Below the pieces are notes generated by a model that was not told the origin of the DNA, did not search any database, and was given only the letters and a program-made list of their open reading frames with translations. DNA of 64,000 nt from a virus. The stretch's first letter is position 1, and every line of letters starts with the position of its first letter. Location of the stretch: positions 1-64,000 of the IMG/VR virus record IMGVR_UViG_3300032053_000019. The stretch is one strand, 5' to 3'. The position numbers were made by a program, and so were the translations under genes. Positions 38,511-41,781 of the stretch are shown one piece after another.

Positions 38511-38584
38511 GGAATGGTGGAGAAGTGACAAAGGCAAAGACATCCGAAAGGATAATCAACTCATCATCACCAATCCACCATTCC
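38511..38584 (+). ncRNA. Guide-like stem-loop unit 0 (orphan)
   Basis: ggaatggtgga/tccaccattcc stem; CA aaggcaaaga CA tccgaaagga TA atcaactcat CA; followed by a T tract. Confidence 0.75.
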
Positions 38585-38603
38585 TATTTTTTAAAGAAAT
38601 CTC

Positions 38604-38632
38604 TTGATTTTTGTTTTGAGTTGACTTATAAT
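38604..38632 (+). promoter_or_regulatory. Sigma70-type promoter P4 for the replication operon
   Basis: TTGATT-17 bp-TATAAT. Confidence 0.7.
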
Positions 38633-38644
38633 TATGACTCAATG

Positions 38645-38769
38645 AGGAAGGAGGCACGATGTCAGTCCTATTAAGTATCACCGCTAATGCGGAATTGACT
38701 TTCTCATCTTTGCCTCCTCAGGGATTGCTCGTGCCTCCTATCCTTCCTTTTCTTCGGAGTATAGTGTGA
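38645..38769 (+). promoter_or_regulatory. Structured 5' leader with a sequestered RBS and a 36-codon uORF (38659-38769)
   Basis: aggaggcacga (38649-38659) pairs with tcgtgcctcct (38729-38739); uORF stop overlaps the helicase GTG. Confidence 0.5.
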
Positions 38770-40175
38770 CCTATAAGATCACTCTCGGCAACGTCTTCTC
38801 AGAAATGAATGACTACCCAACGGAACTGGAGCAAAGACTTGCTATTGCCCATCCCAATTTTTGGTTTAGTCCACAATACAAAATGCATGTATGGGACGGG
38901 AAAACCCACTTCCTTAAACTAACTCCGACAGTTCACTTCCCCACGGGTCTCCTTTTCATCGTGGAGGAGTTCCTCAAAGAGAAGGGTCTGGACTATGAAC
39001 TCATTGATCCTCGCATGCCGATCAAGTATTCCGATGGCATGTTAGCTCCAGTTTCCCCCGATCTACTGAATGGTATTACCCTCCGGGAGTATCAGATTAC
39101 CGCGATTGAGGAAGCAATCCGAAAAAGGCGGGGCGTTCTTGAACTGCCCACCGGGTCAGGCAAGACCGAAGTAGCCGCAGGTATCATTAAACTCCTTAAT
39201 CGGCCCACACTCTTTTTGGTACACACGCAGGACCTCTTACATCAGACCGCCGAACGATTCACCAACCGCCTTGACATTCCGATTGGCAAGATCGGGGATG
39301 GTGAATACGATATAGAAAAACGATGCGTTGTTGCGACCATTCAATCTTGCCATGCCCGCCTCAAGTCGAAGGAACAAGACAAGCGAACTGAGATAAAACA
39401 ATTACTGGAGCGGGCCGAAGTAGTCTTCCAGGACGAAGTGCACCACGCCAGCGCGAGTACGTGGTACAGCATCGGTCAGAAAACCTTGTCGGCAAGGTTC
39501 CGATTCGGATTGTCCGGAACTGTCCTTCGCCGAGACGAACTTTCAAACATGAAGATGTTAGCTCTCTTCGGTGAACCGATCTATACTAAACGGACAATGG
39601 ACTTAGTTGACGATGGATATCTAAGCAAGATTCAGATCACTATGATTGATAATCCTGAAGTGGTAGAGGGTACTTCCTGGTCGGACATTTACTTAAACGG
39701 TATTGTCAAGTCTGAGTCCCGGAATAAGATGATAGTTGATCAAGCCGAGACGGCTTTCCGAGAGAATAAACGAGTTCTACTACTGATTAGGTATATTGAT
39801 CATGGAAAGACCCTAACTCGTCTGCTTAACGAGCAGAGGAGTATTCCTACCGTATTCTTGAGTGGACAAAGTGGACGTGATGATCGTAAGGAGCGAAAAG
39901 AAGAGTTTAATGAGAATGGAAACTTCATTTTAATTGCCAGTACAATTTATGATGAAGGGATTGATCTCCCCGAAGTGAATGTCTTAATCATAGCCTCTGG
40001 TGGATTAAGTGAAGTCAAAACAATACAAAGAGTAGGACGTGGTTTGAGAAAGAAGAAGGATGGTTCAACTCTTCAAGTCTTTGACTTTGAGGATAGTTCG
40101 GATTATTTGATCAAGCATTCGAAGGAGCGCAAACAAGTTTATATTCAGGAAGGATTCTTAGGTGTGGACGAGTAA
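38766..40175 (+). CDS. SF2 DEAD/H-box helicase (UvsW/Res-like)
   Basis: PTGSGKT, DEVH, GLSGT, EGIDLP, QRVGRGLR. Confidence 0.9.
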   Translation: MTYKITLGNVFSEMNDYPTELEQRLAIAHPNFWFSPQYKMHVWDGKTHFLKLTPTVHFPTGLLFIVEEFLKEKGLDYELIDPRMPIKYSDGMLAPVSPDLLNGITLREYQITAIEEAIRKRRGVLELPTGSGKTEVAAGIIKLLNRPTLFLVHTQDLLHQTAERFTNRLDIPIGKIGDGEYDIEKRCVVATIQSCHARLKSKEQDKRTEIKQLLERAEVVFQDEVHHASASTWYSIGQKTLSARFRFGLSGTVLRRDELSNMKMLALFGEPIYTKRTMDLVDDGYLSKIQITMIDNPEVVEGTSWSDIYLNGIVKSESRNKMIVDQAETAFRENKRVLLLIRYIDHGKTLTRLLNEQRSIPTVFLSGQSGRDDRKERKEEFNENGNFILIASTIYDEGIDLPEVNVLIIASGGLSEVKTIQRVGRGLRKKKDGSTLQVFDFEDSSDYLIKHSKERKQVYIQEGFLGVDE

Positions 40176-40406
40176 GATACTGGCAAGAGCGTCCTTAAGG
40201 ACCAAGGTAGATTCGTCTGCTCGTCCACTTCCTTTGTATAATCAAAGACGAGTTAATGATCAAGGGAATGAACACCCCCAGTGGCATGAGTCGGACCAGT
40301 CGTTAACTCGTCCGCTTTGCATACGAGAACGAAGAGGGGTTGGTAAGTCAAATAGAGCATCAGCTTTTGCGTTAAAGACTGGAACAACTACTAATCCTTT
40401 CTCTTC
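40164..40406 (+). ncRNA. Upstream array of three guide-like stem-loop units (U1 40164-40228, U2 40247-40312, U3 40331-40406)
   Basis: Each has a 10-16 bp stem enclosing Y[A/C]-N10-CR-hairpin10-Y[A/C]-N10-CR. Confidence 0.8.
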
Positions 40407-40425
40407 CATTTTATAAGGAGTTACT

Positions 40426-41544
40426 ATGAGTATCTATGCCATTGATTGGCACACGAAGAAAGAGATTCCAATTTATGACGGGAAGAAGATCAAGAAGATT
40501 CCGAACTCCCCTTTCTCTATTGCCGAATGGGCAAAGGGACTTGAAAAGAGAAAGCATATCTTTCTCTTTGAGGCTGGTGGCGGTGACTTCATGAAGATTC
40601 TTCTTCACCGTCAAGGGCATACTGTCCTCACCATGCCTGGTATACATACGAAGCAGTTTCGTGATCGCATTGATGTTGAGAAGACAGACGATACGGACGT
40701 GTCACTGATCTACGAATTATATACAAAGTGGGTGGAGGAGACAGTGGGTCGAGCATCTTCGGGGACAACCGTCCGGTCATCTTCCCACCCACTTTCCTTT
40801 TACCCCTTCTCCGAACTGGACTGCACCATCTCATCACTTCGACTTTTTGTTCGTCGACGCGACTTGGTTCAGGAAGAACGGATACGAGAGAACAACCGGG
40901 CTCTGATCTTCAACCTGACCTACTCTCTAACGAACACACCAAAGAAAGAAATTGATAAAGTTCAGGAACTTCAAAAGACACGAGTTGAGGATTATAAAAA
41001 GGAAGAGGCAAGTCTGACCAAGCAGGTCAATCGTATGCTAGGCACTCTACCAATCTGGACTGACAAGTGGAAAAAGATCAAGGGGTTTGGCCCTAACATT
41101 GTTGGGGGTTTGATCGCCGAACTTGGTAGATGCCAAGCTCAGACCAGGGCCCAGGTGCGAATGTTCACCAGTATGGTTCCTCGTGAAGCGAATCTTACTG
41201 AGAGTGGAAAGCGTCGGCGCAACTCGAATCGTATTCGTGGGTTGCTATATGATGCAGTTGAGCAGATCATCAAGCAGAAGACTCCGGGGTGGAATGAATG
41301 GTACTACAGGTTAAAGGAAAAGTATGCCTCACTTCATCCTGACTGGTCCAAGGGCAAGGTGGATAACTATGCCCGTCGTGTGCTGAAGACACAACTGGCC
41401 ATTGAATTCTGGTCTGATCTTCGGCACTATGGTATGTTGCCAAACAGTGGGGGAGTTAGTGTGACAAACAAACTTACGGTTTCAAAACTAAGAGTTTCCT
41501 CATCCGCCTCCTCCTCCCTTTCTTCTACCGAGGCACAAGTATGA
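40426..41544 (+). CDS. IS110-family/TasR-like RNA-guided protein (DEDD RuvC, coiled coil, Tnp/Nop-like domain)
   Basis: D7 (YAIDW), E49 (FEAG), D88/D91 (KTDDTD); IKGFGP...LIAELG; MVP...ESG...N.IR..L. Confidence 0.8.
   Translation: MSIYAIDWHTKKEIPIYDGKKIKKIPNSPFSIAEWAKGLEKRKHIFLFEAGGGDFMKILLHRQGHTVLTMPGIHTKQFRDRIDVEKTDDTDVSLIYELYTKWVEETVGRASSGTTVRSSSHPLSFYPFSELDCTISSLRLFVRRRDLVQEERIRENNRALIFNLTYSLTNTPKKEIDKVQELQKTRVEDYKKEEASLTKQVNRMLGTLPIWTDKWKKIKGFGPNIVGGLIAELGRCQAQTRAQVRMFTSMVPREANLTESGKRRRNSNRIRGLLYDAVEQIIKQKTPGWNEWYYRLKEKYASLHPDWSKGKVDNYARRVLKTQLAIEFWSDLRHYGMLPNSGGVSVTNKLTVSKLRVSSSASSSLSSTEAQV
40725..40795 (+). ncRNA. Guide-like unit U4 inside the CDS
   Basis: aaagtgggtgg/ccacccacttt stem; CA gtgggtcgag CA tcttcgggga CA accgtccggt CA. 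Confidence 0.7.
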
Positions 41545-41781
41545 TCAAGATTGGTAAGTCAATGACACTTTCGTCCTACGAGATAGACGCAGTATCGGCT
41601 ACCAATCTTGATCTCTTTTGTAAACAAGATGGGTTGGAAAGACAAGGGAGTTTCCATTTCTTTAAACATGGTGTAGCGCATCTTCTAATCCATCTTTTCT
41701 CTGCTAACAATCTTGAACCAGTAAGACCAGTTCACCTGCACCACCATAGGCAATGTCAAAGCCATCTACTGGTTCAAGATT
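41449..41781 (+). ncRNA. Downstream array of four guide-like units (U5 41449-41518, U6 41543-41613, U7 41626-41696, U8 41709-41781)
   Basis: 14-15 bp stems in U6-U8 (weaker in U5) with the same 12-nt-periodic core. Confidence 0.8.

Follow-up and report, generated by a model that had tools for sequence, protein, structure and literature searches.

We have identified, in the genome of a 98-kb phage from sediment metagenomes (IMG/VR virus record IMGVR_UViG_3300032053_000019), a locus that is assigned by sequence comparison and structure modeling to the stem-loop TIGR-Tas systems of the TasR type. The genome is a single contig of 98,439 bp, and the window analyzed here is a stretch of 64,000 nt that corresponds to its bases 1-64000; all positions given below are those of the window. 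The locus is composed of the tasR gene (40426-41544, + strand), which encodes a protein of 372 aa, and nine hairpin units (U0 to U8, all on the + strand), each of which carries two variable segments in its loop. In terms of function, we regard it as somewhat more probable than not that the locus is an accessory cassette of the sediment phage and that its protein is guided by RNA to cut matched DNA.

The class to which the locus appears to belong has already been published, and the locus is hence a further example rather than a new kind. Indeed, stem-loop arrays, besides dual-repeat arrays, were described by Faure et al. 2025 (PMC12045711), and a catalogue of 2,559 stem-loop arrays was given by Xu et al. 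2026 (bioRxiv 10.64898/2026.09.09.750476); the published arrays have variable palindromic stems and spacers of 8-12 nt (PMC12045711; bioRxiv 10.64898/2026.09.09.750476). The particulars that distinguish the present locus are modest: namely, a box D that reads CR where the published one reads UG, a nuclease site that is intact, one unit far from the rest, and a cassette that is cleanly either present or absent. The locus is otherwise an ordinary member of the family described in 2025-2026.

Hairpin units with a common core

All nine units possess a core of 38 nt, in which YA-N10-CR is followed by a 10-nt mini-hairpin and then by a second YA-N10-CR (Y, pyrimidine; R, purine; N, any base); YA and CR are called box C and box D, respectively, and each unit thus has two half-sites. 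The consensus of the 18 half-sites is G (15/18), A (11/18), Y (18/18), A (16/18), N10, C (18/18), R (18/18), U (11/18), and C (15/18), and the N10 segments are mutually unrelated across the units. Since the first variable base after box C is A in 13 of the 18 half-sites, box C may instead be YAA with spacers of 9 nt. Base pairs join the GA that precedes box C to the UC that follows box D, next to the outer stem as well as next to the small loop hairpin, which makes the RNA of a unit pseudo-symmetric. The occurrence of the same half-site in both places, edge and loop, would suit a protein that binds as a symmetric dimer. The box C pyrimidine and the box D purine that lie opposite each other are C/A in 11 half-sites, U/G in three, C/G in two, and U/A in two. 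Also, seven of the nine units have a CUU no more than 6 nt away from the base of the 3' stem, against a background of 0.26, and a U-run takes its place in U0 and U8.

All of the units except U0 lie beside the tasR ORF (open reading frame) or overlap it, and two of them, U4 and U5, are in frame inside the gene. Upstream of tasR, U1 (40164-40228, core 40178-40215) overlaps with its 5' stem the last codons of a helicase gene, U2 (40247-40312, core 40261-40298) has a stem of 14 bp, and U3 (40334-40400, core 40349-40386) has several G-U pairs in its stem, with a folding energy of -18.9 kcal/mol on the + strand versus -9.2 kcal/mol on the opposite strand. U4 (40725-40795, core 40742-40779) is embedded in tasR at residues 100-124, and U5 (about 41449-41517, core 41465-41502) is embedded in the 3' end of the gene at codons about 341-365; the stem of U5 is interrupted (5 bp, a 3-nt internal loop, and 7 bp), but the common register still fits. 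The remaining units of the group are U6 (41543-41613, core 41560-41597), with a stem of 14 bp and a fold z-score of -5.2, U7 (41626-41696, core 41643-41680), with a stem of 14 bp including G-U pairs, and U8 (41709-41781, core 41727-41764), with a stem of 15 bp and a fold z-score of -4.7. The ninth unit, U0 (38510-38585, core 38529-38566), is located 1.6 kb upstream of the others, between the stop codon of an ORF at 38298-38507 and the promoter of the operon; its stem of 12 bp is supplemented with an inner one of 4 bp, a U-run follows, and its fold z-score is -5.9. We will refer to the segment 40161-41789 (+ strand) as the TIGR-TasR cassette, which consists of U1 to U3, tasR with U4 and U5, and U6 to U8; it is bounded on one side by U1, with its 5' stem, and on the other by U8, with its 3' stem.

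These hairpins are far beyond what would be expected by chance. Inverted repeats with arms of 9-23 nt that are 38-49 nt apart were clustered at the unit sites, and the nine units, in each of which a large loop is closed by a long outer stem, gave fold z-scores of -1.9 to -5.9. When the whole genome was scanned for the core motif together with a contiguous stem of at least 11 bp, the + strand gave nine matches, which all lie within 38.5-43.1 kb, and the - strand gave none; the nine are eight of the units and a doubtful tenth one (U9, described below), while U5 does not pass the filter because of its interrupted stem. In 100 codon-block shuffles, both strands together, the same scan gave a mean of 0.15 matches and a maximum of one. 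Furthermore, when the nine units are aligned, 88.8% of the stem cells are paired versus 64% after shuffling, with none of 500 shuffles reaching as high a value, and a control with slid partners gave 35-50%. The two closing pairs of the mini-hairpin are paired in all nine units and covary. Only two of the 78 alignment columns are invariant, the stems being unrelated in sequence, and 17 of the 18 stem pairs vary on both sides. A search against Rfam gave no match at E up to 1.

An earlier reading of this DNA from sequence only (hereafter, the sequence-only reading) had described nine hairpins with unrelated stems around the same 12-nt-periodic core, each followed by a pyrimidine-rich tract, eight of which flank or overlap a 372-aa ORF. 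Every hairpin was found in its place with the core that had been given for it, the tract was recovered as the CUU near the 3' stem base, and the proposal that structure is kept while sequence differs is borne out by the stem pairs that change on both sides. The novelty implied in that reading does not hold, nonetheless, because stem-loop arrays with variable stems, units inside tas, and a finder for them (TIGRFinder) have already been published.

The TasR protein and its relationship to known systems

The tasR ORF is predicted to encode an N-terminal RuvC-like domain, a coiled coil (about residues 130-205), and a C-terminal Nop/IS110-like domain. It contains D7, E49, D88, and D91, which constitute the DEDD set, and E259-S260-G261, the motif of ESG, just as the sequence-only reading had noticed. 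In Pfam, both of the IS110 domains were matched by the product below the threshold. When the sequences of solved structures were searched with phmmer, TIGR-TasR (9MTY) was the sole real match (E 2.5e-11); residues 1-100 align with the RuvC domain of 9MTY, and D7 corresponds to D11 of TaTasR, the mutation of which inactivates TaTasR (PMC12045711). An exhaustive HMMER search then provided 100 homologues, mostly of 300-340 aa, and a profile built from 23 homologues matched 9MTY at 3e-51, TasH at 5e-15, and IS621 at 3e-10. Also, the protein was modeled with AlphaFold from an alignment with a mean predicted local distance difference test (pLDDT) of 87.4 and a predicted template modeling (pTM) score of 0.83, and Foldseek ranked 9MTY first (E 5e-13, target-normalised TM 0.67), followed by IS621 and ISCro4 and then by TasH. 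Sequence and model hence agree that the 372-aa ORF is a TasR, and the TasR-type assignment is made because of the N-terminal RuvC-like domain, which sets TasR apart from TasA and TasH. The description of the protein as IS110/TasR-like and of the locus as a stem-loop TIGR variant is thus supported, with 9MTY as the best match by phmmer, profile, and Foldseek and with an RNA architecture like that of published stem-loop tigRNAs.

The candidate catalytic residues are well conserved among close relatives. All 23 homologues have D7, at least 90% have E49, and neither D88 nor D91 varies among the eight closest ones; in the alignment of more distant homologues, D88 or D91 is lost in some. S260-G261 precedes a conserved Gly; the corresponding position is occupied in IS621 by the catalytic Ser (YESG), and the TaTasR sequence there is KKG. 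Ser260 was kept, nonetheless, in none of the 22 aligned homologues, and S260-G261 is probably incidental.

When compared with most homologues, the peptides encoded by U4 and U5 are additions, either inserted or extending the chain, and they correspond to the segments of low confidence in the model: namely, residues about 110-125 for U4 (pLDDT about 63 at 111-120) and the tail 343-372 for U5 (pLDDT below 50). The tail after residue 335 is predicted to be disordered and is encoded by U5; the last helix before it is closed by H334-Y335, for which the nearest homologue (P0003) has K-F. These two residues are of interest because a Y/H processing loop at the C-terminus belongs to the dual-repeat type and is lacking in the stem-loop class. 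We also modeled a homodimer of the protein, which gave a score of 0.63 versus 0.23 for the best control, with an interface in the coiled coil (residues about 133-204); a mark of this kind is reached by 20 of 30 solved homo-pairs and by one of 23 single chains. At least 77% of the contacts were common among the runs, and the pLDDT of the partner was at least 81. This dimer model shows a likeness to the known complex rather than proof of a dimer and may reflect the predictor's prior exposure to it, as the similar complex 9MTY has been solved.

Among the relatives, P0003 (40% identity) and P0002 are the closest homologues of the protein, and we found 12 loci in viral and metagenome collections that encode homologues of tasR at about 30% identity. 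In a strict scan, 11 of these 12 loci were found to have hairpin units near the homologue, one to three at each locus, only on the strand of tas, and either beside or inside the gene. The units of the relatives take the form of stem, GCUA, N9, UG, loop, CUA, N9, UG, and stem; from these sequences, the architecture of the unit is considered to be conserved and the letters of the boxes to be specific to the clade. Insertions at the junction between the RuvC domain and the coiled coil, the same place as that of U4, were found in P0002, P0004, P0005, P0015, and P0016. Units inside the coding sequence of a tas homologue were noticed at 505-564 and 739-795 of locus L002 and at 4022-4082 of locus L001; of the sites of such coding-internal units in distant homologues, one is in the RuvC domain, and the other (in L002) is at the RuvC/coiled-coil junction of U4. 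A metagenome scan for relatives of tasR gave matches only at about 33% identity, and blastn against phage records in GenBank gave no match.

The locus agrees with the published stem-loop TIGR-Tas class in every feature that was amenable to the present analysis. According to Xu et al. (bioRxiv 10.64898/2026.09.09.750476), units are found upstream, downstream, and inside tas, mapping to disordered segments, and their loops can be hairpins; CUU is conserved at the stem base and has been proposed as a processing mark, and the spacers of CsTasR are 10 nt. The present locus resembles the systems of PlTasA, PateTasR, CsTasR, and BlTasA in the hairpin stems of variable sequence, in the units beside and inside tas that encode disordered segments, in the CUU at the stem base, in the Nop-like coiled coil and C-terminal domain, and in the phage as a host. 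It differs from them in the boxes, which are CCA, CUA, or CUU with UG in the published systems and YA (possibly YAA) and CR here, and in the location of U0, which sits 1.6 kb away, past the helicase gene. Both of the stem-loop TasRs studied by Xu et al., PateTasR and CsTasR, are catalytically dead repressors with substitutions at the DEDD positions (bioRxiv 10.64898/2026.09.09.750476), whereas the DEDD set is intact and conserved here. The complex of a stem-loop TasA has also been solved (Guan et al. 2026; bioRxiv 10.64898/2026.08.11.744272).

With TaTasR (9MTY), the protein shares the aligned catalytic Asp of the RuvC domain (D7 for D11), a coiled-coil dimer as far as the model is concerned, the Nop-like C-terminal domain, and an equal spacing from the conserved Gly to the next helix; the identity between the two is about 22-28%, and the two guide-encoded insertions are in the phage protein. 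Unlike the 36-nt tigRNAs of TaTasR, which come from arrays of conserved edge and loop repeats, the units here have unique long stems. The locus was therefore not assigned to the dual-repeat class of TIGR-Tas, since its units are 65-76 nt long, dispersed, and without conserved edge and loop repeats at a period of about 36 nt. To the IS110 recombinases (IS621, 8WT6; ISCro4, 9T56), the protein is similar in the DEDD RuvC domain, the related C-terminal RNA-binding domain, and, in the case of IS621, the Ser-Gly at the position of the catalytic Ser; the RNA is similar to IS110 bridge RNAs in that guides are in an internal loop flanked by helices and that the target would be read as the left guide joined to the right guide in reverse complement. 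An IS110 element, nonetheless, has one RNA with two loops (target and donor), guides for its own ends, a tetrameric recombinase, and a conserved Ser, in contrast to the nine one-loop units here, and the match of the tasR product to IS621 is weaker than that to TasR. Finally, the dual-guide RNA, the box C/D-like anchors, and the coiled-coil dimer with a Nop domain are reminiscent of archaeal and eukaryotic box C/D small ribonucleoproteins (Nop5-fibrillarin-L7Ae), which differ in having RNA but not DNA as a target and in having fibrillarin and L7Ae as partners. We rejected the identity of the units with box C/D small RNAs, as the half-site consensus has no kink-turn boxes (RUGAUGA/CUGA) and no Rfam match was obtained.

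Presence and absence of the cassette and its probable function

The cassette is present in some and absent from other members of the phage group. In contigs of two other samples (X3 and X5), position 40130 is joined to 41790 across 31 other letters, and 38486-38747 is replaced, so that U0 is also absent from these contigs. A viral contig of 96.6 kb (L013), which has a helicase 95% identical at the protein level, shows the same two differences as X3 and X5. It lacks about 40161-41789, from the 5' stem of U1 to slightly beyond that of U8 on the 3' side, and its alignment retains the helicase C-terminus and the start of the next gene. L013 also lacks the 75-nt hairpin of U0, with the end of the flanking ORF and the promoter conserved. 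Because U0 is missing together with the cassette in these tas-less siblings, we count U0 as part of the system and regard the module as accessory, the cassette being an insertion relative to the siblings. At 40131-40175, the helicase gene ends in codons that overlap the 5' stem of U1, and the C-terminus of the helicase is ...RKQVYIQEGFLGVDE here and ...RRSVYESEGFIKETP in a tas-less sibling; the helicase has hence received a new tail from the insertion. In sample X2, furthermore, we found a tas-positive variant, in which the segment of tasR is 91.5% identical and that of the array is about 78% identical with many small indels.

As for expression, a promoter-like site of the sigma-70 type is found at 38604-38632 on the + strand (TTGATT, 17 nt, TATAAT; 10 of 12 matches), which is conserved in L013. 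A + strand transcript would probably run from this site through the helicase gene, U1 to U3, tasR, and U6 to U8, and U0 might be expressed by read-through from the upstream operon. Cleavage of the transcript near the CUU, or near the U-rich base of a stem, would then release hairpin tigRNAs, each about 65-75 nt long, with the predicted layout of stem, GA, box C (YA), spacer A of about 10 nt, box D (CR), UC, loop hairpin, GA, box C, spacer B, box D, UC, and stem. A TasR dimer held by the coiled coil may bind both box C/D half-sites of one tigRNA, and the two spacers would pair with the opposite strands in adjacent halves of a DNA site of 18-20 bp. From the conservation of the catalytic residues, the complex probably cuts both strands as TaTasR does. 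The nine units would specify nine different targets, which most probably lie in rival phages, in mobile elements of other kinds, or in the host.

As the rule for targets, we used spacer A plus the reverse complement of spacer B with gaps of 0-4, and the opposite arrangement was also tried. The rule follows from TaTasR, which leaves 8-nt 3' overhangs by cutting 5' of the base paired with the fifth spacer base (PMC12045711): each spacer would then pair with the 3' half of its strand, and the target strand would hence consist of spacer A and, after it, spacer B in reverse complement. The same arrangement, left guide plus reverse complement of right guide, had been put forward in the sequence-only reading and agrees with the one derived here. 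Several candidate self-matches (U5 with 17 of 20 at 61391, the U0 leader, and U4) were rejected, since they are within the background of mismatched pairs.

Several observations weigh against a cassette that cuts matched DNA under the guidance of stem-loop RNA. Box D is CR and not UG, and C is opposite A in 11 of the 18 half-sites, so that the recognition of RNA could differ in detail. By itself, the summed folding energy (-220 kcal/mol for the + strand versus -215 kcal/mol) is no argument for that strand, which was assigned from the motif, the CUU, and the orientation of genes. Self-targets in the phage's own genome were no better than the control, the best having 2-4 mismatches per 18 versus 2-5 for mismatched pairs of A and B spacers; in 11.4 kb of L013, including the empty site and the U0 site, no guide matched beyond non-cognate controls; and the exact central 18-mers of the U6, U7, and U8 targets had no match in viral contigs. 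Finally, the stem-loop Tas proteins that have been assayed to date (PateTasR, CsTasR, and several TasA) bind DNA without cutting it.

This last point leads to the most serious of the alternatives, in which the same stem-loop TIGR-TasR only binds DNA and thereby represses or blocks genes of the host, of rival phages, or of the phage itself. PateTasR, CsTasR, MbTasA, and PlTasA all bind and repress without cleavage, a regulator would be plausible in an early replication operon such as the one that contains the cassette, and the loss of D88 or D91 in more distant homologues implies that activity is recurrently lost in the family. On the other hand, the protein retains the whole set of D7, E49, D88, and D91, none of which varies in the eight closest homologues, D7 being equivalent to the essential D11 of TaTasR; PateTasR and CsTasR are, unlike the present protein, substituted at these positions; and self-targets of the kind expected for autoregulation did not rise above background. 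We thus favor cleavage, with residue conservation as the basis, at slightly better than an even chance because the DEDD set is conserved, and we take binding alone to be a real but clearly less probable alternative.

The similarity to IS110 raises a further possibility that the protein is an RNA-guided recombinase or a self-inserting or homing element, with the hairpins as bridge-like guides and Ser260 as the nucleophile. The weak Pfam matches to both IS110 domains and the S260-G261 at the position of the catalytic Ser of IS621 would be compatible with it, and so would the clean presence and absence of a cassette bounded by its own hairpins, with U0 as a separate clean insertion. Both sequence and fold, nonetheless, place the protein clearly closer to TasR than to the IS110 recombinases, and the Ser is conserved in none of the 22 aligned homologues; the nine units are single-loop ones, not one RNA with target and donor loops; and the cassette ends, the empty site of L013, and the rest of the 11.4 kb are unmatched by the guides beyond controls. 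A recombinase is hence improbable. Still a little less probable in our estimate is that the module or single units move by their own RNA-guided cutting or strand transfer, which would make the locus a living intermediate between IS110 and TIGR and show a route of unit gain; this idea comes from the intact DEDD site, the Ser-Gly at the position of the IS621 Ser, and the presence and absence of both the hairpin-bounded cassette and U0. No guide matched the cassette ends above controls of mismatched pairs, and the intermediate between bridge RNAs and TIGR that the sequence-only reading had suggested is not required to explain one dual-guide loop per unit, nine independent units, and cassette ends and an empty site unmatched by the guides.

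The hairpins might also be structural repeats that have nothing to do with the protein, such as terminators, packaging signals, or elements like REP (repetitive extragenic palindromic) sequences and MITEs (miniature inverted-repeat transposable elements). U0 has a U-run at the end of an operon and could terminate transcription, and three other strong hairpins without the motif occur 1 kb upstream. Such repeats would hardly explain why the 12-nt-periodic boxes are kept in all 18 half-sites despite unrelated stems and N10, why the units are confined to one strand and to the neighborhood of tasR and are lost together with tasR in the siblings, or why the same architecture adjoins distant homologues and two units are in frame in tasR. 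We therefore consider this the least probable of all the explanations, and very much so.

If the RNA-guided cassette indeed cuts, the protein would be a compact nuclease (372 aa or fewer) with a stem-loop guide and no need of an adjacent motif. It is an example of a phage stem-loop TIGR-TasR with apparently intact nuclease residues, whereas the stem-loop Tas proteins characterized in publications are only nuclease-dead binders. The sibling without the cassette and U0, together with the X2 variant in which the array has diverged far more than tasR, provides natural material for comparison, and the questions left open in the papers on TIGR (the gain of units or spacers and the natural targets) could be addressed with these sediment samples.

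Neighboring hairpins and genes

The doubtful tenth unit, U9 (43070-43138, + strand; core 43087-43124), is located inside a phosphoesterase gene (42682-43251). Its stem of 13 bp includes four G-U pairs, the flanks adjacent to the boxes are non-canonical, the fold z-score is only -1.2, and the region is kept at 90% identity in the tas-less relatives. U9 may thus be a chance match, about 0.15 of which are expected per genome. One of the differences in the tas-less relatives, T43134C, would convert a G-U pair to a G-C pair.

Three consecutive strong hairpins were also noticed at 37355-37573 inside an ORF (37326-37613), with outer stems of 9-10 bp and arms 34-39 nt apart. Their fold z-scores are -7.2, -2.4, and -4.2, and the first is an almost continuous long hairpin; as guide units they were rejected, because the box C/D pattern is absent. 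L013 aligns only partially over this region, with 75% identity at 37314-37444 and nothing for 37445-37610.

Directly downstream of the cassette is an ORF at 41800-42678 (292 aa), for which no match was obtained in Pfam or PHROG. In the X2 variant, 41786-42682 is replaced by 617-664 other letters, and in X3 and X5, 41818-41990 is diverged and 42571-42682 is replaced. The region 41800-42678 thus looks like a hypervariable accessory slot. Of the genes that follow (42682-44000), one matches a phage phosphoesterase (phrog_547, E 9e-43) and another a QueD-like 6-pyruvoyl-tetrahydropterin synthase (phrog_2389, E 9e-32), and these matches would fit a pathway for 7-deazaguanine modification of DNA.

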